DNA of 64,000 nucleotides, taken from the NCBI GenBank assembly GCA_944390225.1, contig CALXPB010000004.1, positions 2,366 to 66,365 on the forward strand, in the 5' to 3' direction. Position 1 is the stretch's first letter. Every line of letters begins with the position of its first letter. Origin of the DNA: an uncultured Alphaproteobacteria bacterium. Lineage in GTDB: Bacteria > Pseudomonadota > Alphaproteobacteria > Rs-D84. Below, in pieces: positions 10,439-49,577 of this stretch. The notes under the pieces were generated by a model. That model did no database searches and was not told the DNA's origin. It worked only from the letters and a program-made list of their open reading frames with translations. The translations under genes and the position numbers were made by a program.

Positions 10439-10467
10439 AGCCACGATAGGAATATCGTGGCTTTTTT
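10439..10467 (+). terminator. intrinsic terminator
   Basis: AGCCACGATAggaaTATCGTGGCTttttt: 10-bp stem. Confidence 0.8.
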
Positions 10468-10505
10468 ATTGGACAAATGCTCGGACTTTTATTATTCTTA
10501 CAATC

Positions 10506-11580: not shown

Positions 11581-11608
11581 AAAAATTTATATTAGAAAAA
11601 AATAAAAC

Positions 11609-11637
11609 TTGACTTTATATGTTATTTATGGTATTAT
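11609..11637 (+). promoter_or_regulatory. sigma70-like promoter TTGACT-N17-TATTAT at the head of the phage-like cluster
   Basis: ttgact ttatatgttatttatgg tattat, immediately after the birA stop. Confidence 0.55.
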
Positions 11638-11664
11638 ATAAAACATAAACAGTAGAGATTGTTT

Positions 11665-11717
11665 CCGTAACAGTGTTGCGGATTTTTTTGTCGCACATAT
11701 TATGTGCGACTTTTTTT
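11665..11717 (+). terminator. two tandem intrinsic terminators in the leader of the phage-like cluster
   Basis: CCGTAAcagtgTTGCGG+attttttt (11665-11689), then GTCGCACATattATGTGCGAC+ttttttt (11690-11717). Both lie between the promoter and the first ORF (ATG 11739). Confidence 0.55.
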
Positions 11718-11738
11718 ATTAAAAAAGGCGATTTGAAT

Positions 11739-12149
11739 ATGCATCTTAAATTAATAAAAAATCCGGATGAATCAAAAAAAATTATCTATGATATATCTCG
11801 GGTTATTTATGCAGAAACGCATGCAACATCTTTACTTGTTGTTGAGGCGATGGCATCCATGATAAAAAATATTTCTATTTCATCAAAAAAAGACTTTAAA
11901 GATATTATTTCTGATGAAAGTTTATTCGACTCGTTAAAGGAAAATTCTAGAAACCATCAGTATTTAAAAATTGATTCTCAGAATCGCGCGTTTCAGATGT
12001 GCATGCGTGTTGTTAAAAGAATGCTTAACGGTGATTTAGCAGATTGTTGCTTTGGGGCAACAAAGTTTCATCACTCAGATGAAATGCCGGATTGGGCAGT
12101 GGCGCGTGGTTATATTGCCGATATAGACGGTTTGTTGTTTTACTTATAA
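11739..12149 (+). CDS. cell-wall hydrolase, SleB/Hydrolase_2-like (putative endolysin)
   Basis: VIYAETHATS...AMASMIKNI and C-terminal ATKFHHSDEMPDWAVARGYIADIDGLLFY match the Hydrolase_2 pattern (..P.WA......IG.H.FY). Start is set at ATG 11739. Confidence 0.68.
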   Translation: MHLKLIKNPDESKKIIYDISRVIYAETHATSLLVVEAMASMIKNISISSKKDFKDIISDESLFDSLKENSRNHQYLKIDSQNRAFQMCMRVVKRMLNGDLADCCFGATKFHHSDEMPDWAVARGYIADIDGLLFYL

Positions 12150-12160
12150 GAGCGTACATC

Positions 12161-12382
12161 ATGAATAAAATTATTAAAGGCGGTTTTTTAGCAGGGCATA
12201 GAACTTACATAATTTCTGGTATCGGTATTTTATCCGCAATCGGTGCATATATGGTCGGTGATACAGATGTGTTCACTATGTTGCAAGCAATCTTTACATT
12301 GGGCGGAATTTATTTTCTGCGTAAATCAAGCGAAACAAAAGGAAAGAAAAATGGAAAAAATTCCAGAAAAATTTCTAAATGA
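12161..12382 (+). CDS. putative holin (2-3 TM phage membrane protein)
   Basis: 73 aa. GHRTYIISGIGILSAIGAYMVGDTDVFTMLQAIFTLGGIYFLRKS, then a Lys-rich tail. It lies directly after the hydrolase. Confidence 0.5.
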   Translation: MNKIIKGGFLAGHRTYIISGIGILSAIGAYMVGDTDVFTMLQAIFTLGGIYFLRKSSETKGKKNGKNSRKISK

Positions 12383-13007
12383 AGACGGTACATTAAATAC
12401 TGATGCTTTATTAAAGTCTTATTCTGAATTAGAAAAGAAAATGGGAACAATGATATCCGTCCCAAATGAAAGCACCGATGAAGTAACGCGCGCAAAATTT
12501 TATCGCGCAATAGGCGTTCCTGAAAATGCAGATGCGTATCCGATGAATCCTTTATTTGATGACGCGGATTTACGTGCGCAATTTTTTGAAATCGGTTTGA
12601 CATCTTCTCAGGTTGAAAAAATTTATAAGATAGCAGAAGAATATTTATCTCCTGTTTTATCAGAATTGTTTATCGCGCAGAATGAAACAAATGAAATTTC
12701 AGAATTAAAAAATTTCTTCGGTAGTGAAGAAAAAATGAAAGAGGCTTTACGCGCTATAAATTCGTTCGGTGAAAAATATTTACCGCGTGAAGCATTTGAT
12801 GTATTATGCTCGTCAGCCCAAGGAATACAAAGCGTTTATAGGATGATGCAATCTATGGAACCAAGCGTTCAAACGGATGAAAATATATCGCAAAACTTAA
12901 CAGACGATGAGTTAAGAAGAATGATGCGCGATCCAAAATATTGGCGTGATCAAGATCCTGAATATGTAAGAAAAATAGAAAACGGTTTTAAAAAATTATA
13001 TTCATAA
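12351..13007 (+). CDS. putative capsid scaffolding/assembly protein
   Basis: 218 aa, acidic and helical. The N-terminus IPEKFLNEDGTLNTDALLKSYSELEKKMG is typical of podovirus scaffold proteins. It lies upstream of the capsid gene. Start is at ATG 12351. Confidence 0.5.
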   Translation: MEKIPEKFLNEDGTLNTDALLKSYSELEKKMGTMISVPNESTDEVTRAKFYRAIGVPENADAYPMNPLFDDADLRAQFFEIGLTSSQVEKIYKIAEEYLSPVLSELFIAQNETNEISELKNFFGSEEKMKEALRAINSFGEKYLPREAFDVLCSSAQGIQSVYRMMQSMEPSVQTDENISQNLTDDELRRMMRDPKYWRDQDPEYVRKIENGFKKLYS

Positions 13008-13110
13008 GAAAAAAATGCACTTTCTTCTTTACTATTTTTTTTCTTTAATATAAAATATAAAGTAAGAACAAAAAAATTTGTTCTATCCAAAAAGTAAAAA
13101 GGAGAGAAGA

Positions 13111-13419
13111 ATGGCATTCACATTCTTGAAACCGGCTGCAAAAAAAGTTGCTGCGAAAAAACCAGCAGCTAAACCAGCTGTAAAGAAACCAGCGGCTAAG
13201 AAGCCTGCTGCAAAGAAAGCACCTGCAAAAAAAGTAGCAGTAAAAAAAGTTGCTGCGAAAAAACCAGTTGCTAAAAAAGTTGTTGCAAAGAAAGCACCTG
13301 CAAAAAAAGTAGCAGTAAAAAAAGTTGCTGCGAAAAAGCCGGTTGCAAAGAAAGCATGCGCAAAAAAAGTTGCTGTAAAAAAACCAGTCGCTAAAAAAGC
13401 ATGCGCAAAAAGAAAATAA
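13111..13419 (+). CDS. histone H1-like / AlgP-like Lys-Ala-Pro repeat protein
   Basis: 102 aa made almost entirely of AKKPAAKK/VAKK repeats. Strong SD aaaggagag. Followed by several terminators. Confidence 0.75.
   Translation: MAFTFLKPAAKKVAAKKPAAKPAVKKPAAKKPAAKKAPAKKVAVKKVAAKKPVAKKVVAKKAPAKKVAVKKVAAKKPVAKKACAKKVAVKKPVAKKACAKRK
13211..13360 (+). repeat. 2 x 75-bp tandem repeat inside the H1-like gene
   Basis: caaagaaagcacctgcaaaaaaagtagcagtaaaaaaagttgctgcgaaaaa is identical (52 nt) at 13211 and 13286. It encodes the 25-aa unit AKKAPAKKVAVKKVAAKKPVAKK... Confidence 0.9.
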
Positions 13420-13425
13420 TTAAAT

Positions 13426-13525
13426 CCCCGCTTATGCGGGGGTTTATGTTTTTACCGCGTTTCCAGCGGTATTTTTTTTACGAAATTTTCAGTCTGATGA
13501 AGATAAGTCAGACTGAAAATTTTTT
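13426..13525 (+). terminator. three consecutive terminator-like hairpins
   Basis: CCCCGCttatGCGGGG+gtttatgttttt (13426-13452). TACCGCgtttccaGCGGTA+tttttttt (13453-13479). A 15-bp perfect stem AAATTTTCAGTCTGA/TCAGACTGAAAATTT plus T-run (13483-13525). Confidence 0.6.
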
Positions 13526-13608
13526 CAAGACAATCCGATTGTTTCGGACCTTGATATTTTTTGTTTGATGGCGCATAAAGCATAACCATGAAACAGAATC
13601 TCTTAGTT

Positions 13609-13631
13609 GCGTATTCATATACGCTTTTTTT
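13609..13631 (+). terminator. terminator-like hairpin immediately upstream of the capsid gene RBS
   Basis: GCGTATtcatATACGC+ttttttt, 25 nt before ATG 13657. Confidence 0.45.
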
Positions 13632-13656
13632 ATTTCATTAATATAAAGGAAAAATA

Positions 13657-14490
13657 ATGTCTGTTTCAATAGATCAAGTCTTCGTAAAACAGTTCGAAGC
13701 AGATGTTCATTTGGCTTATCAGCAAATGGGCACAAAACTGCGTGCCACGGTACGTAGTAAATCCGGTGTAGTTGGTGCGTCAACGACTTTTCAGAAAGTA
13801 GGACGCGGTACGGCAAGTACAAAATCTCGTCATGGCATTGTACCTGTAATGAATTTAAATCATGAACCTGTTGAATGTTTATTGCAGGATTATTATGCGG
13901 GTGATTGGGTAGACGCATTGGATGAATTAAAAACTAACGTAGATGAACGTCGTGTTGTTGCATCTGCTGGTGCCTATGCGTTAGGTAGAAAAACAGATGA
14001 ATTGATTATTTCTGCAATGAGTCAGGCAACGAATTCTGTCGGTGATTATTCTACCGGTTTAACAAAAGACTTAATTTTATCTGCGGTAGAAGAATTGAAT
14101 ACCAAAGACGTACCTGATGATGGACGTAGATTCGCCGTCGTTGGTGTGCATCAATGGAATGAATTGTTGTCAATTGATGAATTTATCTCTGCAGATTATG
14201 TAGGTAATGATTTGCCATTAGTATCTGGTGGTGCTTCTAAGAAATGGTTGGGTATTACATGGGTATTACATAATGGTTTACCTGTATCAGAAGATGATGA
14301 ACGTGATTGCTTTATTTATCATGCAACAAGCATCGGACATGCGTGCGGTCAGGAAGTAAAGACAGATATTTCATGGCATGGTGAACGAGCTGCTCACTTT
14401 ATCAGCAATAGTATGTCACAGGGAGCAGTACTAATTGATAATGACGGCATTGTACGTCTTAAATGTTTGGATGCCGATGAAACTGTTTAA
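13657..14490 (+). CDS. phage major capsid protein (probable HK97-fold, podovirus-type)
   Basis: 277 aa. FVKQFEADVHLAYQQMGTKLRATVRSKSGVVGASTTFQKVGRGTASTKSRHG..PVMNLNHEPVECLLQDYYAGDWVDALDELK resembles capsid proteins annotated in alphaproteobacterial podovirus prophages. Its position after the scaffold gene fits. Confidence 0.65.
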   Translation: MSVSIDQVFVKQFEADVHLAYQQMGTKLRATVRSKSGVVGASTTFQKVGRGTASTKSRHGIVPVMNLNHEPVECLLQDYYAGDWVDALDELKTNVDERRVVASAGAYALGRKTDELIISAMSQATNSVGDYSTGLTKDLILSAVEELNTKDVPDDGRRFAVVGVHQWNELLSIDEFISADYVGNDLPLVSGGASKKWLGITWVLHNGLPVSEDDERDCFIYHATSIGHACGQEVKTDISWHGERAAHFISNSMSQGAVLIDNDGIVRLKCLDADETV

Positions 14491-14518
14491 CAATAACCAT
14501 GAATAAAAGGATATAACT

Positions 14519-14746
14519 ATGGCTTTTCAGAATAAAAACTTATCTGTTATTGCGTATGCTAATGGTTTTACTTTATGGCATTATTCTGCTGCAGAAACAT
14601 TAGCAACTATCACTGCAAGCGGTTATTTTGACAGTGTAAAAACTTTAATGAATACAGGGGACATTATAATTATAAATGGTTCCGATAATACTTCCATAAA
14701 GAAGATAGTAGCATCTACAAATATAACTGTTGCGGCTTTATCATAA
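14519..14746 (+). CDS. hypothetical phage head-associated protein (75 aa)
   Basis: Compact ORF with SD directly after the capsid gene. No family recognised. Confidence 0.45.
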   Translation: MAFQNKNLSVIAYANGFTLWHYSAAETLATITASGYFDSVKTLMNTGDIIIINGSDNTSIKKIVASTNITVAALS

Positions 14747-14756
14747 TACAAAATAG

Positions 14757-14777
14757 GGCGGCATTTATTATGCCGCC
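14757..14777 (+). terminator. weak terminator-like hairpin
   Basis: GGCGGCATttattATGCCGCC followed by an interrupted T-rich tract. It lies between the 75-aa ORF and the tubular-A-like gene. Confidence 0.3.
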
Positions 14778-14808
14778 TAAATATTTATTCGTTAATAAAG
14801 GATATAGC

Positions 14809-15327
14809 ATGCTGACAAAAATAGATTTATGTTCCATGGCGCTGTTAAAGTTAGGCGAGAAATCAATTCAGTCTTTATTAGACGATACGCCTTCCGCGCA
14901 ATTAAGCCGAACATTATTTGACCCTGTGATAGACGCGCTTTTAGCATCGCACCCATGGCGGTTTGCGTGTAAGGTTTTCGAATTAACAAAGAACGTCGAC
15001 GGAGAATTTCTTATACCTGCGGACTGTCTGCGCGTATTAAAATGTAAAGGTGAAATCATAGGTAATAAAATAGAATCGTCTGCTGATAGTACTTCAATTT
15101 TGGCGATTGTACGAGTCCCCGTAGAAAAATTTCCCAGTTATTTCGTATCACTGGCGGCAACGAAATTGGCTATGGAATTTTGCATCCCATTAATAGGCGA
15201 GCAAAACGTATTCAGAATGTTGGCGGCATTATACGAGACTGAAATGCAATCTGCGAAGTTTATAGATAGTACGACTTCTATAAACCAAGACATAGAAAAC
15301 TTTTCGTTAATTAATGCACGTTTTTAA
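14809..15327 (+). CDS. T7 gp11-like tail tubular protein A / head-tail adaptor
   Basis: 172 aa. The N-terminus DLCSMALLKLGEKSIQSLLDDTPSAQLSRTLFDPVIDALLASHPWRF follows the gp11-family pattern (..aL..iG...i.sld......a........l...g.W.F). Start is at ATG 14809. Confidence 0.55.
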   Translation: MLTKIDLCSMALLKLGEKSIQSLLDDTPSAQLSRTLFDPVIDALLASHPWRFACKVFELTKNVDGEFLIPADCLRVLKCKGEIIGNKIESSADSTSILAIVRVPVEKFPSYFVSLAATKLAMEFCIPLIGEQNVFRMLAALYETEMQSAKFIDSTTSINQDIENFSLINARF

Positions 15328-15344
15328 TCGGGGGAGAATTTAAC

Positions 15345-17060
15345 ATGGGGGACTTTATAAAAACACAAAACACGTTTGCCGACGGTGAAGTCGCACCAGA
15401 ATTTTACGCGCGCGATAATATAAACGGACTTTCAAAATTAGAAAATATGTACGTTTTGGCTGGGGGTGGGCTTTCCAGAAGACCTGGGTTAGAACACGTC
15501 GCAGATTTAACTTCTGCAGCCAGATTAATTGCTTTTTCCGTAAGCGAAAACGAAAATTATTTATTGGCACTGACGGATGAGCATATTTTAATTTTCTCTG
15601 ACGGACAGGAAATAGAGGATATAATTTCTCCGTGGGATGCCGGCGATCTTTCAAAAATTCAATACGCACAGAGATTCGGTACAATAATTTTTGTACATCC
15701 AGATTATCAACCGTATACTTTAAAGAAGTCCGATGACGAATTTATTTTATCTGCGTTTAATTTTGCGGTTAACGAATCTGATATGACAGTATATATACCG
15801 TTTATGAGATTTGATGATACGGAAAACCTTAAAATAACGGTGCTGTCAAATTCGGCAGGCAGTAATTATGCTACATTCAAGACAGATGAAGATTTTTGGA
15901 CGCCGGATGACGTAGAAGGAATATTTCTGCTGTTGGAAAAGCAATGGAAAATTACAGAATATGTAAACGCAAAGGAAGTGAAGGCTTTTGTTAACGGTAC
16001 TTATACGGTTCCGTCTGCACCGGTCTCGGATTGGCGTGAGGCCGCGTTCAGTAAAAAACGAGGTTGGCCGTGTAGCATAACTTTTCATCAAGATAGACTT
16101 GTTTTCGGAGGTTCTCGTTCTTGGCCAAGCGGTGTATGGTTATCACAAGTAGGAAGGCATAATAATTTTAATGTCGGAACGGGTTTGGATGACGAGGCCA
16201 TTTTTATAACATTATTATCGCAACAAAGACAGCAGATATGTACAGTTGTCAGCAGTGATAATCTGCAAATTCTGACTTCTACGGGTGAGTGGGCGATTTC
16301 AAGCAAACCTTTGACACCTTCGGTTGTTGATGTAAAACAACATACTTCCGTTGGCAGCGTTGCTTCAAGGTACCTGCCACCACAGAAAATTGAGGGCTCA
16401 ACGGTTTTCATTTCAAGCAGTAAAAAAGATATTCGCGAATTAAGTTTGGATCAGTTAGGTGAAAATTATAACGCAACAGATTTGTGCGCTTTGTCAAAGC
16501 ATCTTATGCAAGATCCAGTAGATTTATCTTATAACGAAGAAATGCGACAACTGTTTGTCGTTATGAATTCTGGAGATATGGCGGTGCTAAATAAAAATTC
16601 TGCGCTTGGTATCTCGGCTTGGGGAACATATAAAACGCAGGGAACTTTTAAGTCCGTTGCAACTGTTCAGGGTGAAACGTTCGTTGTTGTTATTCGCAAC
16701 GAAAACGCTTTTCTTGAAAAGTTTTCTGAAAGTGCTTTGCAAGATGTAGATGAGTATGGTTTCTCGTTTACCGCGTCTGCTCTGCCTGTGCGAGCGTCTG
16801 GGCATAATGCAAATAAACTTAGATTGCGCAAAATTTCTGCAAGAGTTTTAAATACTAAAACCTTGTTTATAAATGAAGTGCGTGCCGATTTACCCAATGA
16901 AATTTATAATGAAACTTTCGATGGTTATAGCGGTGACGTTTCAATAAATTTATTGGGTTGTCAAAGAAACTGTATAAACGCACCGTGGACCATCAAAAGC
17001 AGTGAACAATTACCGGCAACGGTCTTATCCGTTAGTATGTACGGATATTATTTAGTGTAA
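15345..17060 (+). CDS. T7 gp12-like tail tubular protein B / nozzle
   Basis: 571 aa. The N-terminus TFADGEVAPEFYARDNINGLSKLENMYVLAGGGLSRRPGLEHV matches the G.lsp.l..R.D...y..gl..leN..v...Gg..rRpG signature. It follows the gp11-like gene, as in T7-like phages. Confidence 0.55.
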   Translation: MGDFIKTQNTFADGEVAPEFYARDNINGLSKLENMYVLAGGGLSRRPGLEHVADLTSAARLIAFSVSENENYLLALTDEHILIFSDGQEIEDIISPWDAGDLSKIQYAQRFGTIIFVHPDYQPYTLKKSDDEFILSAFNFAVNESDMTVYIPFMRFDDTENLKITVLSNSAGSNYATFKTDEDFWTPDDVEGIFLLLEKQWKITEYVNAKEVKAFVNGTYTVPSAPVSDWREAAFSKKRGWPCSITFHQDRLVFGGSRSWPSGVWLSQVGRHNNFNVGTGLDDEAIFITLLSQQRQQICTVVSSDNLQILTSTGEWAISSKPLTPSVVDVKQHTSVGSVASRYLPPQKIEGSTVFISSSKKDIRELSLDQLGENYNATDLCALSKHLMQDPVDLSYNEEMRQLFVVMNSGDMAVLNKNSALGISAWGTYKTQGTFKSVATVQGETFVVVIRNENAFLEKFSESALQDVDEYGFSFTASALPVRASGHNANKLRLRKISARVLNTKTLFINEVRADLPNEIYNETFDGYSGDVSINLLGCQRNCINAPWTIKSSEQLPATVLSVSMYGYYLV

Positions 17061-17076
17061 ACAATGGGAGAAAATT

Positions 17077-17424
17077 ATGGGACAACTAGTATCAGATGTA
17101 ACAGATATTCTGGATTATAAAAATTCTAAGAAAGAGGCAGAAACGGAACGTCAAAAGATACTTGCCGAAATGGCCAAAGACGAAACCGAGAAAACTAATT
17201 TGGTAAAGAAAACTTTGGCAACTCAACGCGCAAAATACGGTGCGTCTGGGATGTCGGGTAAAAGTATGACCGAAGGAGCAGTTCTGAAACGATTGAAACA
17301 AGAAGTTGAAGAACCATATGAAACAAAACGGCGTACAAATAAGGAAAAGTTAAAAAAAATAAAGGTAACAAAGCCGAATATCTTGCAATCAATCTTAGAT
17401 AAGTTTGACGATCTGTTGGACTAG
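17077..17424 (+). CDS. hypothetical Lys/Glu-rich coiled-coil virion-module protein
   Basis: 115 aa with SD gggag. It lies between the nozzle and fibre-adaptor genes. No family recognised. Confidence 0.45.
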   Translation: MGQLVSDVTDILDYKNSKKEAETERQKILAEMAKDETEKTNLVKKTLATQRAKYGASGMSGKSMTEGAVLKRLKQEVEEPYETKRRTNKEKLKKIKVTKPNILQSILDKFDDLLD

Positions 17425-17437
17425 AATGGAGGCACAT

Positions 17438-17986
17438 ATGTATAAAATATCTTATGTCGGTGACGGCTTGACTTCGGAGTTTTTATTTGCCTTCCCATTC
17501 TTTCAGGACGCCGATATAAAAGTCGCTTTGGACGAAAAACTTTTATCCGAGAATCAATACTCTGTGTACGCTAATGAAAATTTTGACGGAGGAACAGTAA
17601 TTTTTTCAACGCCTCCGGCGGAAGATGTTAAGATAGATATATTCAGACAAATTTCTTTGTCGCGCGTAGTAGATTATCAGCCAACCGCAAAAATTGACCC
17701 AGAAAGTCTAAACTCGGACTTTAACTTTCTTTTGGAAGCCTTCAAGGATTTGCATTCAATAGAAGTTAATGTAACAGAATGGGCGAATATCCACGATAAT
17801 GTTATGAATTTCTTGAATTATAACTTGCAAGTAATTGAAGATAAATTATCTGGCGGAGCTGTTTTAGGCCTATATAATAATCTGGTGTCTGTATTGGAAA
17901 GCGCGCTACCTAAACTGATAAACGATTACGGCAGTATCACGGAAACCGCGCCTAACGAAAATAAAGATGATTACGGACTTTTATAA
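17438..17986 (+). CDS. T7 gp17 N-terminal-domain-like tail fibre adaptor (short, no distal fibre domain)
   Basis: 182 aa. YVGDGLTSEFLFAFPFFQDADIKVALDEKLL..YSV..GGTVIFSTPPAEDVKIDIFRQISLSRVVDYQPTAKIDPESLNSDFNFLLEAFKDL matches the Phage_T7_tail N-domain pattern. Start is at ATG 17438 with SD ggagg. Confidence 0.58.
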   Translation: MYKISYVGDGLTSEFLFAFPFFQDADIKVALDEKLLSENQYSVYANENFDGGTVIFSTPPAEDVKIDIFRQISLSRVVDYQPTAKIDPESLNSDFNFLLEAFKDLHSIEVNVTEWANIHDNVMNFLNYNLQVIEDKLSGGAVLGLYNNLVSVLESALPKLINDYGSITETAPNENKDDYGLL

Positions 17987-18575
17987 CTTCTTGGACGAAT
18001 GGAACGCGATTCTTAATTTTGAAACACCTCGTCACCATAAAGAAATAATGAAGTTCTTGGTTTCTGTTCTATGTGCGGAACCTCATCGAGGTTTATTGAT
18101 GTCTTTCAGACATTCTGGAAAATCAACAGTGGTAGGTATTTTCGCCGCGTGTCTATTGTGCTTGCACCCAGAAACGAGAATTCTGATATTGTCCGCAGAA
18201 AGTAGTTTATCGGCTCGAATGGTTTCCCATATAAAACATATACTGGAAAATCATCCGCGTTGTAAAGATTTAATACCAGATGTAAAAAAGGAATGGGCTC
18301 TGGGAAGGATAACGGTTAATAGACCGATAGGTATACGTGAACCGTCTGTGATTTGTCAGGGGGTATACGGTAATATAACTGGTATGCGTGCAGATTTAAT
18401 AATTTGTGATGATGTAGAGGTACCAAATACCTGTAATACCGCACAGAAAAGAGAAAATCTGAGAGAACGTTTGCGAGAACTTGACTTTATTCTGTCACCT
18501 TCTGGTACAATGATTTATATAGGTACACCGCATACGTTGGACACGATTTATAGAACAAAAGATGCCGATTGTTAA
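17967..18575 (+). CDS. terminase large subunit, N-terminal ATPase-domain fragment (split gene)
   Basis: 202 aa. TPRHHKEI, Walker A FRHSGKSTV, Walker B ADLIICDDVE, and coupling motif IGTPHT, then a stop after ..IYRTKDADC. No nuclease domain. Confidence 0.7.
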   Translation: MITDFYNFLDEWNAILNFETPRHHKEIMKFLVSVLCAEPHRGLLMSFRHSGKSTVVGIFAACLLCLHPETRILILSAESSLSARMVSHIKHILENHPRCKDLIPDVKKEWALGRITVNRPIGIREPSVICQGVYGNITGMRADLIICDDVEVPNTCNTAQKRENLRERLRELDFILSPSGTMIYIGTPHTLDTIYRTKDADC

Positions 18576-19252
18576 ATTGTTGTAGGTGCATCGGGTGCGT
18601 TATCTGTATCAATCGGTTTAATTGTTGTAATGAAAGAGCGTAGTTTTTCTAGTAGTTCTGTACCGGCGTTTCCGAACATCGGTAGGTAAGTTTCATATTC
18701 TGGCATATCTGCTTGTAATTGTGCGCGTGCTCTTTCCGAAAGCGGTTGATTTATCATATCGCTGGCAACTTTCCATAAGTAATAAGCGCGGTAAGTTTTT
18801 GCGATGACAGACCATTTTTCTAGTAAATCCGGTCTTTCGGCAAGTGCGGCGCGTATGGCAACCAACCACTCATCGCCGAATTTTTTTATTACGTCCAGAC
18901 TTTGCAGTTTTTCCAGACTTTCTTCATCTGGAATAAAACTGTTAATCCCCGCTTCCAATTCTTCCCATTCTGTCGGTGTTAAAGATATTGGTGCAACGCT
19001 TTCTGTCATAAGACCACCATAAGGTAGCAAATCACGCTCGATAGAATCCATAGGGGTTTTACCGCTACGTAAGTTTTCTATATGTCGGACAAGCATCTTA
19101 CCTGTTGGTAATTCGCGTAATTCTTTTATTACATCTGGGGTTGCTTCGTTAATAAAAACCTCATTAACAGCTGCCCACCCACCGAAAATTACGTGTTCTT
19201 GGCGATAAAGGTTTAACAATCTTTGTGCGGTTACGCTAACTTTTGCTTTCAT
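18572..19252 (-). CDS. hypothetical protein (226 aa)
   Basis: ORF downstream of the dual-HTH gene. Start is set at ATG 19252 with SD gggggag (track start 19294). The protein is helical and acidic. No family recognised. Confidence 0.5.
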   Translation of the reverse strand: MKAKVSVTAQRLLNLYRQEHVIFGGWAAVNEVFINEATPDVIKELRELPTGKMLVRHIENLRSGKTPMDSIERDLLPYGGLMTESVAPISLTPTEWEELEAGINSFIPDEESLEKLQSLDVIKKFGDEWLVAIRAALAERPDLLEKWSVIAKTYRAYYLWKVASDMINQPLSERARAQLQADMPEYETYLPMFGNAGTELLEKLRSFITTIKPIDTDNAPDAPTTI

Positions 19253-19280
19253 TGGCTCCCCCCATCTGAGCAAGAAAAAT

Positions 19281-20288
19281 TTATTCCATGACAATCATTA
19301 TTACTTTATGTAATGTTTTGCCAAAGATTTTTTCTTCTGGTGAAGATACCTGACCGTATATTTTTCCTCTGGCATCTTGACGGACAAGAACTATCTGTGC
19401 GGTTGTTGCTTCTTCTGAATTTAAAGAGTCGAAATTTTTATCAATAGAAACCGCCAAGTCGCCAACTTGTGCCGGTGTATCTGAATCAACGAACACATAC
19501 GCGCTTTCGGGCAGATAACCGTTTACACGTTTGGAGTTTGGTACTACTGCATATACACCCTTGCGACCCTCTAACATCATCGGAGCAACAATCATTTTTG
19601 TGTCGGACTTTCTGAAAGAAATACTTTTGCCTTCTGGAACGCCGAATACGGGTACTAACTTTTTACGTGCGCTGTCATAGATTTTTGCGCCGTACAGGCT
19701 GTCATGCATATCAATGTCAGTTAAAGGATTCCCCGGAACAAGAACGGATTTTACGCGTTCTTTTACTTTATTAATTTGTTTGTTTAATTCGCCGGCTTTA
19801 TAAAGTTCTGCTATTTTATCAAACAAGCCATCGGTCGTATAGTTAAAGGATTTTGCCAACGGTTCGATTTCATTTTCGTAAATTTCACGTTGCCCGACTT
19901 CTATCTTGTGATAGACAGATAGTGTCATACCGGCATTCTTAGCAGCCTGTGCAATAGTTTTACCCTGTAACTGACGGATTTTTCTTATACCACTGCCGAA
20001 AATCTTTAATCCACCGTCTTCGTTGTCGGTCATGCGACGTTTAATTTCATTTTGCCACTGATTTGCGACTTCATCTGTTTCTTTGATAAATATATCTGAT
20101 AACTTACATCCAAGTATGTTGCATATATTTAATAACTGCTTTTGGTTCAAGCGTCTTACGCCTTTTTCAATTTTTGAAACGGCAGACAACGACAAGTTTG
20201 ATTGACGTGCTAATTCGGTCATTTTCATGCCGTTAGCCAACCTGATGTTTCTTATGTTGTTAGGAAAAATGATTTCTTCTTGAGCCAT
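19281..20288 (-). CDS. dual-HTH XRE-family regulator with C-terminal S24/LexA-like beta domain lacking an obvious Ser-Lys dyad
   Basis: Two HTH_3 units (NIRNIRLANGMKMTELARQSNLSLSAVSKIEKG; GIRKIRQLQGKTIAQAAKNAGMTLSVYHKIEVG). The C-terminal ~120 aa has ..VYAVVPNSKRVNGYLPESAYVFVDSDTPAQVGDLAV. Start is at ATG 20288 with SD aaggag. Confidence 0.72.
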   Translation of the reverse strand: MAQEEIIFPNNIRNIRLANGMKMTELARQSNLSLSAVSKIEKGVRRLNQKQLLNICNILGCKLSDIFIKETDEVANQWQNEIKRRMTDNEDGGLKIFGSGIRKIRQLQGKTIAQAAKNAGMTLSVYHKIEVGQREIYENEIEPLAKSFNYTTDGLFDKIAELYKAGELNKQINKVKERVKSVLVPGNPLTDIDMHDSLYGAKIYDSARKKLVPVFGVPEGKSISFRKSDTKMIVAPMMLEGRKGVYAVVPNSKRVNGYLPESAYVFVDSDTPAQVGDLAVSIDKNFDSLNSEEATTAQIVLVRQDARGKIYGQVSSPEEKIFGKTLHKVIMIVME

Positions 20289-20356
20289 CGCAAAACTCCT
20301 TACTTTTCTTGACAAAATGATAGTCGTTTTTTCAGCACTTCGCAAGCATAAAATGA

Positions 20357-21907
20357 TTATAGCGGTATATCATCAGGAATTTCACTGGTGTCAATTTGCT
20401 CTGGCTGAGAGTCCGGTTTATCTGATGTGTTAATTTGGTCATCCAAGAAATCGTTAGATATTCTGCCTTCCATCTCGTCAAGATTATCAAACAGGCTGTA
20501 ATCACCGAAGAACGCAAGATGCACTGTTTCTGGGCGACCGTGACGGTTTTTCCCGATGATGACATCTGCTTTACCGCGCGCGCGTTCAAGACGTTTCTGG
20601 TAATTTTCAATTATTTTTTCGTTTGCATTACCGGATATGCGCTGTGATGGATCTCGGTTTTCCAGATAGTATTCTTCACGATATGTAAACATTACAATAT
20701 CAGCGTCTTGTTCAATGGAACCGGATTCGCGTAAGTCCGCCAGTTGCGGGCGCTTGTCATCACGAGATTCAACGCTTCGAGACAATTGTGATAGTGCAAT
20801 TATAGGAACATCAAATTCCTTGGCCAGCATTTTTAAACCGCGGGTAATCTCGGAAATTTCTTGAACGCGGTTATCGCTACGTTTTCCGCCCGGCAGAGTC
20901 ATAAGTTGTAAATAATCGATTACTATAAGTGCGACGCCACCATATTTGCGAGCAAGGCGTCTGGTGCGCGTTCTGATTGTAGGAACTGACATACCAGGAG
21001 TGTCATCAATTACTAACGGTACATTACCGATTGCCGCAGAATATTGAGACATTTTCAAGAAGTCTTCATCTGTCAGATTCCCTTCGCGCATTGCCGTTGC
21101 AGGTACTTTTGATTGGGAAGATAATACGCGCGTCGCTAATTGAGAAGCAGACATTTCAAGACTGAAAAATATTACGGCTCCTTTATATTGTTTATTGGCT
21201 CGACCGTAAAGAATTGCGTTTGCCGCATTAAATGCGATATTCATCGCCAAAGTCGTCTTACCCATAGCCGGACGACCCGCAATTATAAGTAAATCTGAGT
21301 GGTGTAAACCGCTGATGGATTTATCCAAAGCCGTTAAACCAGTAGTCAAACCAGATAGTTTACCGTCTGCTTTATATGCTATTTCAGCCTCTTGTAGAGC
21401 ACTTTGCAGAGCCGTTGCAATAGAACATCCTTCATGTTCCGATACACCGGCAGATGCCATTTCAAACAATTTCTGTTCGGCAGATTCAATTTGCGCAGAT
21501 ACCGGATTGTCTAAGTCCTCTATAAAAGCGGCATCGGTAATTGATTGCCCCAGATTGATTAAGTCGCGACGCAAAGCGTTTTCATAAACTATGCGACCGT
21601 ATTGTTCAACGTTTACTACGGTTGCACCTGCGCTGGATAATTGGGTTAAATAGTCAATTCCACCAACAGATTCTAAGACACCTTGTTGATCAAGATAATT
21701 TTTTGCCGTTATTATATCAAACGGTATTCCAGCAGAGAATTGTCTTTCTGCCAATTTATATATTTCTTGGTGTGCTGGATGGGAAAAATGTTCGGCGCGC
21801 AGAAATTCTGACACCTTTTCCAGTGCGCGATTATTCATCAGAACTGCCGCCAGAACAGCTTGTTCTGCTTCTAGATTCGTCGGCAAGGTTTTGGGAGTGA
21901 AGTCCAT
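20357..21907 (-). CDS. dnaB: replicative DNA helicase DnaB with ~35-aa acidic C-terminal tail
   Basis: N-terminal NLEAEQAVLAAVL, Walker A GRPAMGKTTLAMN, IVIDYLQLM, and SQLSR..E. There is no SD before the ATG, and its start codon interlocks with the plus-strand ATG at 21906. Confidence 0.9.
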   Translation of the reverse strand: MDFTPKTLPTNLEAEQAVLAAVLMNNRALEKVSEFLRAEHFSHPAHQEIYKLAERQFSAGIPFDIITAKNYLDQQGVLESVGGIDYLTQLSSAGATVVNVEQYGRIVYENALRRDLINLGQSITDAAFIEDLDNPVSAQIESAEQKLFEMASAGVSEHEGCSIATALQSALQEAEIAYKADGKLSGLTTGLTALDKSISGLHHSDLLIIAGRPAMGKTTLAMNIAFNAANAILYGRANKQYKGAVIFFSLEMSASQLATRVLSSQSKVPATAMREGNLTDEDFLKMSQYSAAIGNVPLVIDDTPGMSVPTIRTRTRRLARKYGGVALIVIDYLQLMTLPGGKRSDNRVQEISEITRGLKMLAKEFDVPIIALSQLSRSVESRDDKRPQLADLRESGSIEQDADIVMFTYREEYYLENRDPSQRISGNANEKIIENYQKRLERARGKADVIIGKNRHGRPETVHLAFFGDYSLFDNLDEMEGRISNDFLDDQINTSDKPDSQPEQIDTSEIPDDIPL

Positions 21908-22754
21908 GTCAAATATAGTATATAAAAATTTTGCTTTTTCAACGCCTTTTTTAACTGGCTATCGCGAATTAAGAATTCCCATAATAGATTCTGCCGGGAA
22001 TCCGGCTTGGCCCGAATTGTTCCCGATAGAACGTATCGAAGATTTACGACAAACTGTCGGAGATAGATATTTTTCGGCTCAGATGATGTTGCAATTTGTT
22101 CCACCGGATCGTGCGCGTCTGGATCCTGATTCGCTACATCTTTATGATGATGATTTTGACATCAGAAACGCAAAAATAGGGAACGCTTTAATTACAGGAG
22201 TAACTGCGTATTGGGACCCTTCTTCAGGCAGAAAAAAATCAGACGGCAGTGTCTGCGTGCTTATTTACAGAGACGATAAAAATAAGCATTTTTTCATTCA
22301 TGATGTTAAGTATCTTTTGGTATCAGATGAAGAAAATCACCCTTTGGCTCATCAATGTCAGATGGTATCGGATTTCTTATCAAAGCATGCTTTGCACAAA
22401 ATTTATATAGAAACAAATGGTATGGGAAATGCGTTACCAGAGATAATGAGAACGGTTACTCAGCAACGCGGAATAAAAGTTCAGGTGCAAAAGATTCTGA
22501 ACCACTCAAAAAAAGAAAGCAGAATACTTGATACCATAGAACCTATTTTAACTACGGGCAGACTACACGCGCATCGACGTGTTCAGTTCACGCCTTTGTT
22601 ATCAGAGATGTTAGGCTGGTCACCAGTAGGCAGCACCGGACATGATGACGGTCTGGACGCCGTTGCAGGTGCAATTTGTGCTGCACCGTTACCTGTACGT
22701 CCTTTGGGACAAAGATTACGTCCGTTCACAGCAAATACAGATTTCAAGTTGTAA
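21906..22754 (+). CDS. terminase large subunit, C-terminal (nuclease-domain) fragment (split gene)
   Basis: About 282 aa. WPELFPIERIEDLR..YFSAQMMLQ, RNase-H-like nuclease motifs AYWDPSSG, IETNGMGN and GHDDGLDAVAGA. Own SD gggag lies 8 nt before ATG 21906; the track gives a TTG start at 21891. Confidence 0.68.
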   Translation: MSNIVYKNFAFSTPFLTGYRELRIPIIDSAGNPAWPELFPIERIEDLRQTVGDRYFSAQMMLQFVPPDRARLDPDSLHLYDDDFDIRNAKIGNALITGVTAYWDPSSGRKKSDGSVCVLIYRDDKNKHFFIHDVKYLLVSDEENHPLAHQCQMVSDFLSKHALHKIYIETNGMGNALPEIMRTVTQQRGIKVQVQKILNHSKKESRILDTIEPILTTGRLHAHRRVQFTPLLSEMLGWSPVGSTGHDDGLDAVAGAICAAPLPVRPLGQRLRPFTANTDFKL

Positions 22755-22774
22755 CAATTATAAAAGGAGCAAAT

Positions 22775-23998
22775 ATGCAGAATAATTTACAACAAATGTA
22801 TCGTCGTGCGCTTGATTTGCGTGCGCCTTGGTTAAACAGATGGGATAATGCTTTGCGTTATACGATGCCGACAGAAGACGATGACGTTGCAACCTTGTTC
22901 GACGCAACGGCAGCCGATGCGGTAGATAACTTAGCAGCGTCAATGTATTCTTTGCTTACACCACCGGAATCTTTATGGATTTCATTGATACCAGAAAGTG
23001 AAGATTCACCAGATGCCGCAACCGCAGCGATGGCATTACGAGCAAACTTAAATGACTCTAATTTTTACACAACTATTCATCAGTGTTATTTAGATTTAGT
23101 AATTTTAGGTACAGCTTGTTTATTCATGGCGGAAAACCCTATCGGTGCGGACTCCGCTTTTTCGTTTACAGCGATACCGATGAAGGATATAGCAATATTA
23201 TCAAACGCAGTGTTTCATACAGCCAGTATGCCTGCACGCGAAGTTATGGAAAAGTATCCGTCTTGGACACCACCGGCAGAGTTGCGCGACGCAATAAAGA
23301 AAGACCCGGATATGCCATTAAAACTTGTACAGAGCCTTGTCGGTAAAGATTTTACTGCTTGGTTGGACGTCGGTGGCGATATAGAAAACAACATCGTGTC
23401 AAAAGGTACGTTTGAAACGAATCCTTACTTAATCTTTCGGTGGTCTGTTGCCAGTGGCGAGTTATATGGGCGAGGCCCTGTATTACGCGCTCTGCCGGAT
23501 ATAAAAACCGCGAATAAGGTCGTGGAATTGGTATTAAAAAACGCAACCATTGCCGTATCCGGTATTTGGCAAGCAGACGATGACGGCGTTATAAATCTTT
23601 CTAACATAAACCTTACTCCCGGGGCAATCATACCAAAAGCGGTTGGCAGTTCGGGTTTAACGCCCTTATCATCAGGAGCAGATTTTGATGTGTCTCAGAT
23701 AATATTGAAAGATTTGCGCGAACGCATTCGTCATGCGTTGCTGGCAGATAGGCTGGGATTGCTATCCGAAAAGGAAATGACCGCAACTGAAATAATGGCG
23801 CGTAATGCGGATATGATGCGAATACTCGGGGCTACATACGGTCGTCTGCTGCACGAGTTCATCCGACCGCTGTGTGAAAGAGGTCTGCAGATTTTATCTC
23901 GTCGCGGAGTGATAGATAAAATATCTTTACACAGCGACGCCGAGTTAAAATATATCGCGCCTATCGCAAAGATGGCCATAGAAGAAACATTATTATAA
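22775..23998 (+). CDS. podovirus head-to-tail connector (portal) protein, T7 gp8-like family
   Basis: 407 aa. LQQMYRRALDLRAPWLNRWDNALRYTMP....DATAADAVDNLAASMYSLLTPPESLW fits the Head-tail_con pattern. Start is at ATG 22775 with SD aaaggag. Confidence 0.65.
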   Translation: MQNNLQQMYRRALDLRAPWLNRWDNALRYTMPTEDDDVATLFDATAADAVDNLAASMYSLLTPPESLWISLIPESEDSPDAATAAMALRANLNDSNFYTTIHQCYLDLVILGTACLFMAENPIGADSAFSFTAIPMKDIAILSNAVFHTASMPAREVMEKYPSWTPPAELRDAIKKDPDMPLKLVQSLVGKDFTAWLDVGGDIENNIVSKGTFETNPYLIFRWSVASGELYGRGPVLRALPDIKTANKVVELVLKNATIAVSGIWQADDDGVINLSNINLTPGAIIPKAVGSSGLTPLSSGADFDVSQIILKDLRERIRHALLADRLGLLSEKEMTATEIMARNADMMRILGATYGRLLHEFIRPLCERGLQILSRRGVIDKISLHSDAELKYIAPIAKMAIEETLL

Positions 23999-24010
23999 AG
24001 AGTCTAAAAA

Positions 24011-24202
24011 ATGAAAGATATAGAGCAAAATTACACAAGAACGTTCTCAACCTCGGCAGGTGCGGCAGTATTGTCGCACTTACGTAGAATAACAATAGAA
24101 CGCGTGCTTGGACCGAACGCCAGTGATTCAGAATTACGCGGTCTAGAAGCGCAACGCGCACTGGTCCATCAGATTGAAAATATGATAGAACGAGGTAAAT
24201 AA
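24011..24202 (+). CDS. Bbp19-like small phage protein
   Basis: 63 aa. TFSTSAGAAVLSHLRR.......LRGLEAQRALVHQIENMI resembles the Bbp19 domain pattern (F....G..VL..L........EG.R.vv..I). Confidence 0.45.
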   Translation: MKDIEQNYTRTFSTSAGAAVLSHLRRITIERVLGPNASDSELRGLEAQRALVHQIENMIERGK

Positions 24203-24459
24203 TGACCACGCAATCAGGCATAATGGGAATTCTGGACGTTTTACGAGACAGTTGGTTTCTCATTGCTTTTATAGCGGGCATAATATATTGGGTCGCGCGT
24301 CAAGATTCTTCACTGGCAGAAATTGATAGAGCAGACCACAGAATAACAACACTTGAAAACCGAGTCACAATACTAGAAACAGGAATCGGGCAGTTGCAGA
24401 TAAAACTGGACGGCATAAAAGAAGATGTTTCTTTGATAAAAACTGCGGTTATAAAATAA
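24202..24459 (+). CDS. membrane-anchored coiled-coil protein (i-spanin-like architecture)
   Basis: 85 aa. One TM (WFLIAFIAGIIYWV) followed by a heptad-rich coil (RITTLENRVTILETGIGQLQIKLDGIKEDV). Last ORF of the phage-like cluster. Confidence 0.45.
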   Translation: MTTQSGIMGILDVLRDSWFLIAFIAGIIYWVARQDSSLAEIDRADHRITTLENRVTILETGIGQLQIKLDGIKEDVSLIKTAVIK

Positions 24460-24462
24460 AAA

Positions 24463-24484
24463 CCCGCAGAAAAGCGGGATTTTT
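24463..24484. terminator. intrinsic terminator closing the phage-like cluster
   Basis: aaaaaCCCGCagaaaaGCGGGattttt. It sits between convergent genes. Confidence 0.6.
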
Positions 24485-24632: not shown

Positions 24633-24696
24633 AATTTACTCCTTTTCTATTAAAAGCACGATTAGATTATAAAAGAAACGAGCATCTTTTTCAAGG

Positions 24697-25038: not shown

Positions 25039-25067
25039 AATTATAAAAATAACCAAAAAGGGAAAGA

Positions 25068-25523
25068 ATGTCTAGACAAATACAAATACGTCGTGGTAGT
25101 GCGACGGAACACGAAGATTTTACAGGTGCCATTGGCGAGATAACAATGGACACGACGAATAAAACATTGCGCGTACATGACGGTGAAACTGTTGGTGGAA
25201 CGCCACTAGCAAAACAGAGCGAGCTGGATGATATAAAAAATTATTTATTAAAAATAGATTTAGATTGGGATAATAAAGTTGATTGTACTAGTACAGTCAA
25301 TATAACTATTAATAAAAATGGTTTTATGTTATGCCGTGGTTCTACATATTCTTTAGATTGGGTGGAAGCAGATTTTAAAACAGAATTATTACGTGAATAT
25401 ATATTATCTAATAACTATACAACAGTTTGGGCGCCGGTTTATGAGGGGCAACATCTTAAACAACGTCAAAAATCTGAGTATAGTACCTCTTTTTTTATAC
25501 CGTACAAAAGTGTTTTAGAATAA
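25068..25523 (+). CDS. phage tail-fibre-like protein with Mtd_N/HylP-type N-terminal domain (paralog 1)
   Basis: IQIRRGSATEHEDFTGAIGEITMDTTNKTLRVHDGETVGGTPLA is the IQ.RRG....w......GE...dTd....kiGDG motif of fibre and tropism-determinant N-domains. It is about 60 percent identical over ~48 aa to the 48904-49473 protein. The C-terminal ~100 aa is unrelated. Confidence 0.6.
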   Translation: MSRQIQIRRGSATEHEDFTGAIGEITMDTTNKTLRVHDGETVGGTPLAKQSELDDIKNYLLKIDLDWDNKVDCTSTVNITINKNGFMLCRGSTYSLDWVEADFKTELLREYILSNNYTTVWAPVYEGQHLKQRQKSEYSTSFFIPYKSVLE

Positions 25524-49473: not shown

Positions 49474-49506
49474 AAAAAATCCTTTTTTTAAGTTCAAAGT
49501 GGAAAT

Positions 49507-49530
49507 AAAAAATCACCCGACTGGGTGATT
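49507..49530 (-). terminator. intrinsic terminator (minus strand)
   Basis: Minus-strand read: AATCACCCagtcGGGTGATT+tttttatt, downstream of the 564-aa ORF. Confidence 0.7.
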
Positions 49531-49577
49531 AGATTGTGTTAACAATTATATCATAAATCGGCAAAAAAATCAAGCGT

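Follow-up and report, generated by a model that had tools for sequence, protein, structure and literature searches.

Between the host genes birA (10870–11580) and yraN (24697–25056, minus strand), the chromosome of an uncultured alphaproteobacterium of the lineage Rs-D84 carries a compact cluster of phage-derived lysis, head, short-tail and DNA-packaging genes (11609–24478). We analysed this cluster in a window of 64,000 nt, the whole stretch to which coordinates refer (contig CALXPB010000004.1 of assembly GCA_944390225.1, positions 2,366–66,365 of the forward strand). The host chromosome has a GC content of 37%, and core genes occur throughout the window (priA, a VirB11-like ATPase gene, birA, bamA, rseP, the RNase E gene rne, recG and ackA). 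A preliminary description, made from the sequence alone, had proposed either a cryptic prophage or a domesticated element resembling a gene transfer agent (GTA).

Gene content and conservation of the cluster

Genes were assigned by profile searches (Pfam, PHROG, NCBIfam) and by matching to structures in the PDB. The earlier gene assignments were reproduced by these profile or structure–sequence searches, except that two open reading frames (ORFs), the holin-like one of 73 amino acids (aa) and one of 115 aa (p115), had no family match in the profile searches. Starts were corrected for the adaptor (14809), the 226-aa ORF (19252), the helix-turn-helix (HTH) protein (20288), the C-terminal terminase piece (21906) and the portal (22775). 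The features are listed below, with the best-supporting matches in brackets.

11609..11637, plus strand: late-operon promoter (TTGACT, 17-nt spacer, extended −10 element TGgTATTAT)
11664..11717, plus strand: tandem pair of intrinsic terminators in the leader that separates the promoter from the endolysin gene (hairpins 11664–11710)
11736..12149, plus strand: endolysin-like protein of the SleB/Hydrolase_2 type, 137 aa (phrog_938 endolysin, 4e-8)
12161..12382, plus strand: holin-like small membrane protein, 73 aa (position and hydrophobic sequence)
12351..13007, plus strand: T7-type scaffolding protein, 218 aa (PF05396, 2.5e-9; phrog_3742)
13111..13419, plus strand: histone H1/Hc2-like Lys-rich protein, about 37% Lys (PF07382, 3.5e-15)
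13421..13656, plus strand: terminator hairpins, then the structured leader of the capsid gene
13657..14490, plus strand: major capsid protein, HK97 fold (Phage_capsid_2), 277 aa (PF19821, 3.7e-71; PDB 9eg4, 1.2e-24)
14519..14746, plus strand: 75-aa head-associated protein, p75 (phrog_18004, 1.8e-13, a phage family without assigned function)
14809..15327, plus strand: tail adaptor, T7 gp11-like, 172 aa (phrog_394, 6e-32; PDB 9efk_T and 8ck1_E 'Connector Protein')
15345..17060, plus strand: tail nozzle, T7 gp12-like, 571 aa (phrog_376, 6e-83; PDB 8ck1_A 'Tail Nozzle', 6.5e-34)
17077..17424, plus strand: 115-aa charged coiled-coil protein, p115
17438..17986, plus strand: fibre anchor, T7 gp17 N-terminal-like domain only, 182 aa (phrog_1640, 1.2e-15, residues 4–95)
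17967..18575, plus strand: TerN, N-terminal piece of the large terminase, 202 aa (phrog_38, positions 271–459)
18572..19252, minus strand: 226-aa all-helical protein (p240), last gene of the dnaB operon
19281..20288, minus strand: double-HTH (XRE-type) DNA-binding protein, 335 aa (two PF01381 stretches and HTH_19)
20357..21907, minus strand: chromosomal replicative helicase DnaB, 516 aa (NF006606 equivalog)
21906..22754, plus strand: TerC, C-terminal piece of the large terminase, 282 aa (PF22530, PF17289; phrog_38, positions 470–703)
21915..21942, minus strand: dnaB promoter (TTGAAA, 16-nt spacer, TACTAT), within TerC codons 4–13
22775..23998, plus strand: portal, T7 gp8-type head-to-tail connector, 407 aa (PF12236, 2.2e-81)
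24011..24202, plus strand: Bbp19-like small protein, 63 aa (PF25181, 2.6e-10)
24202..24478 including the terminator, plus strand: 85-aa protein with a transmembrane (TM) segment and coiled coil, spanin- or holin-like, p85 (weak: phrog_736, DUF7365)
24463–24478: terminal bidirectional terminator
25068..25523, plus strand: off-cluster Mtd_N protein, 151 aa (PF18454, 7.6e-15)
48904..49573, minus strand: second off-cluster Mtd_N protein, 197 aa (PF18454, 5.8e-13)

The cluster had been described as a block in a single orientation, which it is not: a three-gene operon containing dnaB lies on the minus strand between the two pieces of the large terminase (TerL). Without this operon, the phage-derived genes amount to about 9.5 kb, as first estimated. 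The assignments extend to related loci, to which we refer by L numbers. Endolysin orthologues in L167, L168, L169, L170 and L172 carry PF07486 Hydrolase_2, fibre-anchor orthologues in L169, L170 and L172 match PF03906 Phage_T7_tail, and the nozzle orthologue of L170 matches PF25675 Phage_nozzle. A p75 gene directly follows the capsid gene in Pelagibacter phage Hodr, L082 and L155 as well, and the Bbp19 gene comes after the portal in phage relatives too. The gene at the p115 position in L155 matches phrog_418 'internal virion protein' weakly; p115 is possibly a small internal virion protein. In L140, L167, L170 and L172, the cluster opens with an ORF that, like p85, has a TM segment and coiled coil.

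Mobility and replication functions are missing, in agreement with the preliminary description. Profile searches of the cluster and its flanks found no integrase, excisionase, polymerase or primase, and replication is represented solely by the host dnaB equivalog. No att-like repeat marks the borders, the longest word common to both being 11 nt, no more than in shuffled sequence. Large internal core proteins are likewise absent from the cluster, and the fibre consists of the N-terminal anchor only. Neither a tape measure nor a tail tube protein was found in the cluster by profile and PDB matching.

A survey of a one-genome-per-species collection returned about 509 capsid relatives, of which the best 80 loci were taken for comparison (86–97% capsid identity to the window). 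Their hosts are gut metagenome-assembled genomes (MAGs) labelled uncultured Alphaproteobacteria, 'Rickettsiales' or Candidatus Enterousia, including one closed genome of 958,618 bp. Enterousia is a member of the uncultured order Rs-D84, with genomes mostly below 1 Mb, and these hosts have neither a tricarboxylic acid (TCA) cycle nor respiration and may rely on partner organisms (PMC12306168). The cluster takes up about 1% of the host's small genome.

The preliminary description had named conservation at one locus under purifying selection as the mark of domestication, and this is what the comparison revealed. All 80 species-representative genomes carry the cluster at the same birA-adjacent locus and in identical gene order, with birA at the left flank in every locus that extends past the left border (67 of the 80). 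The common order is 139-aa ORF, birA, endolysin, holin-like protein, scaffold, Lys-rich protein, capsid, p75, adaptor, nozzle, p115, fibre anchor, TerN, p240, HTH protein and dnaB (on the opposite strand), then TerC, portal, Bbp19 and p85; the fibre anchor is present in 55 of the 80 species. ORFs are full length throughout, except in L074 (scaffold), L053 (HTH protein) and L022 (a deletion from adaptor to TerN). In L022 (11100–11990), the adaptor is truncated, nozzle, p115 and fibre anchor are gone, and TerN has lost its beginning. The genome, binned as 'Bacteroides fragilis', is probably mis-binned; either tail genes were lost here in a rare event or the assembly is at fault.

Ratios of nonsynonymous to synonymous substitution rates (dN/dS) were estimated for 19 genes by the Nei–Gojobori method, using only pairs with dS <1.5. 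All lie between 0.06 and 0.29, which signifies purifying selection on every gene. Values were 0.064 for the capsid, 0.072 for the portal and 0.19 for the scaffold; 0.106 for terN and 0.196 for terC; 0.137 for the nozzle, 0.19 for p115, 0.125 for the holin-like gene and 0.292 for the endolysin. For comparison, the host genes gave 0.070 (dnaB), 0.161 (birA), 0.082 (HTH protein) and 0.18 (226-aa ORF). Median identity across the 80 species falls from 88.6% for the capsid to 82.8% for DnaB and 68.7% for BirA. Capsid and portal are as constrained as DnaB.

Relatives with a capsid at least 78% identical never lie within a prophage of about 40 kb, the arrangement that had been named as evidence against domestication. 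The cluster is almost certainly domesticated, and the element is kept in at least 80, and probably about 500, related species.

A large terminase in two pieces around the dnaB operon

TerN contains Walker A, Walker B and motif III and aligns to residues 30–213 of T7 gp19 (PDB 4bij); TerC comprises the rest of the ATPase domain and the RNase-H-like nuclease. When concatenated, the two give a single uninterrupted alignment to T7-type TerL over 97% of their own length. The break falls about 10 residues past motif III, at T7 gp19 residue 213, in a surface loop, and no conserved residue is lost. Walker A, Walker B and motif III are invariant in 81 TerN sequences, as are the acidic nuclease motifs WDP, ETNG and HDDGLDA in 76 TerC sequences. 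The nearest intact terminases among 1.8 billion proteins are 45–51% identical.

The split site is the same in all 80 species-level loci and in L140, L167 and L169. Across the lineages aligned, TerN stops at GTPHTxxTIY and TerC begins at FLxGYxxLKIP, a region through which the TerL of L155 is continuous. Because other alphaproteobacterial lineages have the site in common, the split is an ancient, shared derived character. Two ways of restoring a single chain were considered and rejected. A programmed excision that rejoins the gene is contradicted by the lack of direct repeats at the segment edges and of a recombinase, and by the dnaB operon with its own promoter inside. Against a split intein or intron, the two pieces offer no space for intein halves, and the 335-nt spacer of L140 belongs to no Rfam family. 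The missing repeats and the lack of room for an intein imply that the terminase must be two chains. A search of the literature, which is not exhaustively searchable, returned no published conserved split large terminase.

The segment between the halves had been taken for a 3.3-kb insert. It is present as described, but it is not a recent insertion; it is the host dnaB operon, located in an ancient terminase split. DnaB matches the chromosomal equivalog NF006606 at 600 bits (cut-off 540) and scores below the phage_DnaB cut-off. It occupies the same place in every locus that reaches its position (78), in 77 of them over at least 90% of its length. The segment is gene-tight, with the stop codons of TerN and the 226-aa ORF overlapping at one end and the start codons of dnaB and terC at the other. 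The dnaB promoter is at least 90% conserved in 77 loci, and synonymous-site entropy over it drops to 0.21–0.41, against about 0.75 in the rest of terC. TerC has a conserved N-terminal extension, IVYKNFAFSTPFL (21906–21945), and the same bases form, on the other strand, the dnaB promoter and an A-rich upstream element. Owing to this overlap, conservation of the extension may reflect the promoter and not the protein.

The other two genes of the operon are less readily placed. The 226-aa ORF had no match in Pfam, PHROG or NCBIfam; none of its 1250 homologues carries a domain, and its AF2 model (pLDDT 78) resembles no PDB fold at E <2. The double-HTH protein matches ClgR-like and C-protein-like HTH structures in the PDB and is a candidate regulator.

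Relatives in IMG/VR fall into two classes. Those with capsids 78–92% identical are 'viral contigs' of 10–13 kb that represent the same chromosomal locus, including dnaB; about 55 'viral genomes' (L087–L139, 4–21 kb) are pieces of this locus, many with the host dnaB operon. Those with capsids 60–65% identical have a phage order (portal–Bbp19–scaffold–capsid–p75–adaptor–nozzle ... TerL) and an intact TerL, 510 aa long in L155. The exception is L140 (65%), an AT-rich contig with the gene order of the window, in which only the 335-nt spacer separates TerN from TerC. Querying with its TerN uncovered numerous free-standing ORFs, each about 200 aa long, in MAGs that carry the labels Rhodospirillaceae, Rickettsiales, Micavibrio and Acetobacteraceae.

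Three such clusters, L167, L169 and L170, have the order Hydrolase_2–scaffold–Lys-rich–membrane protein–capsid–p75–adaptor–nozzle–x–fibre anchor–TerN–ftsZ–portal–TerC and are flanked by accBC, ddl, topA, mipZ and obg. The ftsZ gene between TerN and the portal passes the TIGR00065 equivalog. In L172, TerN is followed by a gap of about 270 nt, TerC and then host genes. Different essential host genes later settled between the halves: dnaB in Rs-D84, ftsZ elsewhere. Capsids of the split-terminase elements form a close group set apart from those of the phage relatives; they are 64–87% identical to each other, although their hosts range from 29 to 55% GC.

Two observations concern individual relatives. 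Adjoining TerC, L140 (10341–11267) and L172 (13385–13849) have ORFs whose N-termini look type IV pilin-like by eye, and which may be linked to attachment or DNA uptake. A related cluster on an 803-kb host contig (L168, JGI 3300050571, 800–17000; capsid about 60% identical) has its TerL in fragments of 313 and 155 aa with part missing, and judging from these fragments it looks like a degrading relative. It also carries a Hydrolase_2 lysin and GTA_holin_3TM (PF11351), the holin family of RcGTA.

Regulatory elements and accessory proteins

The promoter and tandem terminators noted at first are both present, and both are kept in 68 species. In these Enterousia-type loci the promoter is conserved as CTTGACTTT...TGnTA, and both leader hairpins are preserved by compensatory changes between GC and AU pairs. 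The promoter is also present in the distant lineages L167, L169, L170, L171 and L172, followed by at least one leader terminator in each one checked. No further copy of the late promoter was found elsewhere in the window. Within the cluster, terminator-like hairpins follow the Lys-rich gene in 67 of 67 loci and p75 in 66 of 80, against 0–2 loci at each of the four other junctions examined. T7 has a terminator after its capsid gene, which the one after p75 resembles. The arrangement of promoter, immediate terminators, lysis genes and then morphogenesis genes is that of the lambda late operon (PR'-tR'-lysis-head-tail, controlled by Q), a likeness of architecture only.

The leader of the capsid gene (13472–13656) contains a perfect palindrome, TCAGTCTGA-N10-TCAGACTGA (13489–13516), which occurs once in the window, and a second hairpin. 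Palindrome and GGCGC / GCATAACC blocks are conserved in 78 loci at variable spacing. Its role could lie in RNA processing or in the control of translation, or it could serve as an operator. A sigma-54 reading of the GGCGC...GCATAACC blocks was rejected, as their spacing differs between species. No known RNA family matched the leaders at gathering score.

Whether the cluster is under antitermination control is, in our judgement, an even question. Two candidates for its regulator are encoded nearby. Besides the double-HTH protein, an ORF of 139 aa (10506–10925) overlaps the start of birA and is found upstream of birA in all Enterousia-type loci, with a median identity of 49%. Its C-terminus resembles a winged helix of the OmpR/PhoB type, with no more than a weak MarR match in Pfam, and the protein is a candidate cluster regulator. 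An ORF of 81–95 aa lies directly upstream of it.

The right-hand genes pose a separate question. No conserved terC promoter was found inside dnaB: synonymous entropy at its 5' end is 0.67–0.68 against a mean of about 0.73, and the alignment contains coding periodicity only.

The Lys-rich protein, encoded between scaffold and capsid, consists of AKKP-type repeats with 35–39% Lys. All 67 Enterousia-type loci encode it, with a conserved N-terminus MAFTFLKPAAKK, and it also occurs in L167, L169, L170 and L171. In Hodr the position is taken by an unrelated gene, and in L155 there is no space for one.

Two fibre-like genes outside the cluster, at 25068 and 48904, had been pointed out before, and both products carry an Mtd_N domain. 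Their N-terminal 52 aa are 63% identical and their C-termini are unrelated. The same pattern recurs among 560 homologues of the 25068 protein, in which an N-terminal region of about 55 aa (70–98% identical) is joined to unrelated C-termini. Such modularity is typical of receptor-binding proteins, for which the Mtd_N proteins are candidates. The 48904 gene has a promoter of its own (TTGATT, 17-nt spacer, TGATATAAT), after which the leader forms a CACCCAGTCGGGTG hairpin with a T-run.

Possible function and neighbouring genes

The genomic features by which GTAs and other viriforms are recognised are chromosomal vertical inheritance, purifying selection and a lack of autonomous replication, integration and excision (PMC9662315), and all of them are found here. 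Together with the evidence for domestication and the profile assignments, which hold, they support the GTA-like reading of the preliminary description at the genomic level. We consider it probable, from gene content and conservation, that the vertically inherited cluster encodes a GTA-like particle which packages DNA and carries it from cell to cell. In origin it would most likely be a remnant of a short-tailed phage like HTVC010P and Hodr.

A possible course of particle production can be outlined. The late promoter is probably constitutive, and most transcripts would end at the leader terminators. Control of CcGTA involves activation and processive antitermination through internal terminators, by GafYZ in Caulobacter (PMC11150451); here too, a factor acting like GafYZ or lambda Q might let RNA polymerase read through. 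Read-through would first yield endolysin, holin, scaffold and Lys-rich protein and, past the further terminators, capsid, tail and TerN. TerC, portal, Bbp19 and p85 would be expressed by antisense read-through of the dnaB operon or from an unrecognised promoter; the former would, speculatively, disturb dnaB expression in the committed cell. TerN and TerC would then reassemble on the portal and fill capsids by a headful mechanism. The solved capsid relative 9eg4 has seven chains per asymmetric unit, which indicates T=7 for that relative; the particle here may hold about 30–40 kb, unless its capsid has shrunk. Since no small terminase (TerS) is recognisable, the packaged DNA would probably be non-specific host DNA, which the Lys-rich protein may condense or recruit. 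Endolysin, holin and the TM/coiled-coil protein would lyse the cell and release the particles, and these may attach by means of exchangeable Mtd_N proteins, whose genes lie outside the cluster. Because the large ejection (core) proteins are missing, entry into the recipient would probably use the recipient's own uptake machinery. DNA entry relies on the recipient in RcGTA as well.

Several points weigh against this reading. The element is known from its genes alone, and all hosts are uncultured MAGs. In the general definition of GTAs, the head is too small to carry every gene that the particle requires (PMC9662315). If T=7 is retained, one particle would have space for all 13 kb of the cluster, in contrast to RcGTA; with the two Mtd_N genes included, the span is about 38 kb (11.6–49.6 kb). 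We know of no experimental precedent for a functional two-piece TerL. No antiterminator was found in the analysis and no Q-like protein recognised, the HTH protein and the 139-aa ORF being candidates only. No conserved promoter for terC to portal was found inside dnaB, and to express the right-hand genes by antisense read-through of the essential dnaB operon is a speculative proposal. The apparent lack of TerS is at most suggestive of random packaging, because no TerS is recognised in Hodr and L155 either, where the short ORFs preceding TerL carry no such annotation.

Among known systems, RcGTA and CcGTA (Rhodogtaviriformidae) share with the element an alphaproteobacterial host, fixed and vertically inherited head, tail and lysis genes under purifying selection, release by lysis, attachment genes outside the cluster and the lack of integrase and replication genes. 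However, they are siphovirus-like, with a tape measure and long tail, and of independent ancestry, whereas the genes here encode a PF12236 portal, a PF19821 capsid and a T7-type short tail of adaptor and nozzle in place of RcGTA-type portal and capsid. Of these, only the Rs-D84 element has a split terminase, a Lys-rich gene in the head module and essential host genes inside, and only RcGTA and CcGTA have a demonstrated function. BaGTA (Bartogtaviriformidae) is likewise a GTA of host-associated alphaproteobacteria tied to replication. It adjoins a phage-derived run-off replication origin (PMC9662315, PMC2697382), and its 29 required genes extend over about 79 kb (PMC9662315). Its link to replication is thus an origin, while that of the Rs-D84 element is the dnaB gene inside the cluster; the two are set apart here by described gene content only.

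The preliminary description held that a GTA derived from a podovirus would be new. This stands for the Alphaproteobacteria and for this ancestry but not in general, owing to FpGTA of Faecalibacterium, presented in 2026 as the first podovirus-like GTA-like element, for which particles and the packaging of about 8.5–9 kb were shown experimentally (PMC12946183). Compared by description only, FpGTA is the nearest analogue in architecture and habitat: it belongs to a gut bacterium and combines a compact operon of about 10 kb with TerL, portal, scaffold, capsid and short-tail genes with a second locus for receptor binding and lysis. Its host is a member of the Firmicutes, however, it has a possible TerS, and its TerL is not described as split (PMC12946183).

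The cultured phage relatives, Hodr (capsid 46% identical) and HTVC010P-like and Vibrio podophages, have genomes of 31–39 kb. These phages and the podophages L081, L082, L155 and L162 share a homologous portal-to-nozzle module, followed by fibre and TerL, with capsids 45–65% identical. Their TerL of about 500 aa is intact. In Hodr, the nozzle is followed by two large proteins (784 and 1247 aa), where T7 encodes its internal core proteins, and early genes are present too. Relative to them, the Rs-D84 element is circularly permuted, has gained the Lys-rich gene, has a split TerL and has lost the large core proteins. A complete T7-like or HTVC010P-like podovirus of about 31–40 kb would have early and replication genes, internal core (ejection) proteins, a full fibre and an intact TerL, and this is not what lies at the locus.

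The conserved genes could serve another end. A killer particle of the PBSX type would be a domesticated defective phage released by lysis of a few cells, its adsorption killing or inhibiting competitors and its packaged DNA being incidental. PBSX of Bacillus subtilis, a member of the Firmicutes, is myovirus-like and kills by tail action. It resembles the particle proposed here in being domesticated, non-infectious, able to package host DNA and released by lysis. The evidence for domestication fits a killer equally well; the Mtd_N genes are highly diversified, as strain-level targeting would predict, and the ejection proteins for productive DNA delivery are missing. However, the terminase motifs, portal and capsid are constrained like DnaB, more than killing seems to need, and no mechanism is known by which a short podovirus tail could kill without ejecting DNA or protein. 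We regard this explanation as unlikely.

Somewhat less probable still is another host function, such as programmed lysis that feeds kin with DNA or nutrients, or a particle that supplies a partner cell with DNA or the Lys-rich protein. Hosts with genomes below 1 Mb and neither TCA cycle nor respiration may rely on partners (PMC12306168), they spend about 1% of a small genome on the cluster, and a gene for a Lys-rich nucleoprotein has been recruited into the head module. Against this, nothing points positively to a specific cargo or target, and the complete DNA-packaging motor is conserved.

It is very improbable that the element is still mobile, be it as a minimal temperate phage or as a cf-PICI-like, capsid-forming satellite. 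IMG/VR does list pieces of the locus of 10–13 kb as viral contigs, but these represent this chromosomal locus itself, dnaB operon included. The integrase, att sites, replication initiator and mobility of phage satellites (PICI/cf-PICI) are all missing, as are an excisionase and a primase or replicase, and the cluster is fixed beside birA with essential host genes interleaved. Finally, although most phage functions are absent and L168 looks degraded with its TerL broken, a decaying cryptic prophage kept by chance or by linkage to dnaB, the sober alternative of the preliminary description, is excluded for practical purposes by ORFs intact in essentially all 80 species, dN/dS of 0.06–0.29, invariant terminase motifs and the persistence of the family across hosts of 29–55% GC; linkage to dnaB cannot shield the 6.8 kb upstream of TerN from point mutations.

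If the GTA-like reading is correct, it would establish a podovirus-derived GTA family in the Alphaproteobacteria. Few GTA families are known in all, and each of them has changed views on virus domestication and gene flow. The element would be present in about 500 species-level genomes of abundant uncultured gut bacteria of about 1 Mb, in which recombination could offset genome decay. The terminase would be the first candidate case of a natural split, conserved over long evolutionary spans, in a motor that has for decades been examined as a single chain. Essential genes (dnaB, ftsZ) interleaved with viral genes constitute an unusual 'lock-in' and may link particle production to the cell cycle, although regulatory coupling to dnaB or ftsZ seems doubtful to us at present. 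Since the locus is mislabelled as viral in IMG/VR, its recognition matters for virome studies. No publication describing the element was found (Enterousia/Rs-D84, HTVC010P or Micavibrio with GTA) in a literature that is not exhaustively searchable.

A more far-reaching version of the GTA-like reading is tentative and, in our judgement, less likely than not. The elements would form a third independent alphaproteobacterial GTA family that predates the split between the 29% and 55% GC lineages. Its TerL would be an obligate two-subunit enzyme whose gap repeatedly captured genes governing the cell cycle, dnaB in antisense orientation in Rs-D84 and ftsZ in sense orientation elsewhere; antitermination would directly rewire replication or division in the cell bound for lysis, the cluster would be undeletable, and the histone-like protein would replace the small terminase or DNA-condensing functions.

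The remaining observations concern the surroundings of the cluster. Between the terminal terminator and yraN lies a lipoprotein-like ORF of 50 aa (24484–24633, minus strand), a DUF4223 protein by synteny with L085 and L171. Further to the right, four successive minus-strand ORFs (25515–29538) have a GC content of 28–30%, against 37% for the chromosome; at least the first is glycosyltransferase-like from its sequence motifs. The right flank differs between species, with a GH108 lysin in L083, nothing in L084 and surA/tpiA/grpE in L171, and because of this variation 25515–29538 looks like a variable surface-polysaccharide island. Type IV secretion-like genes occur on either side of the cluster, encoding a VirB11-type ATPase (3430–4425) and a VirB8-family protein (29822–31964, by synteny with L085); they might have a part in DNA uptake. 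At 37826–38496, a 164-nt unit is repeated in tandem (4.1 copies, 98% matches), each unit containing a hairpin and a T-run. The repeat begins at the 3' end of tRNA-His (37755–37831), which adjoins tRNA-Ala.

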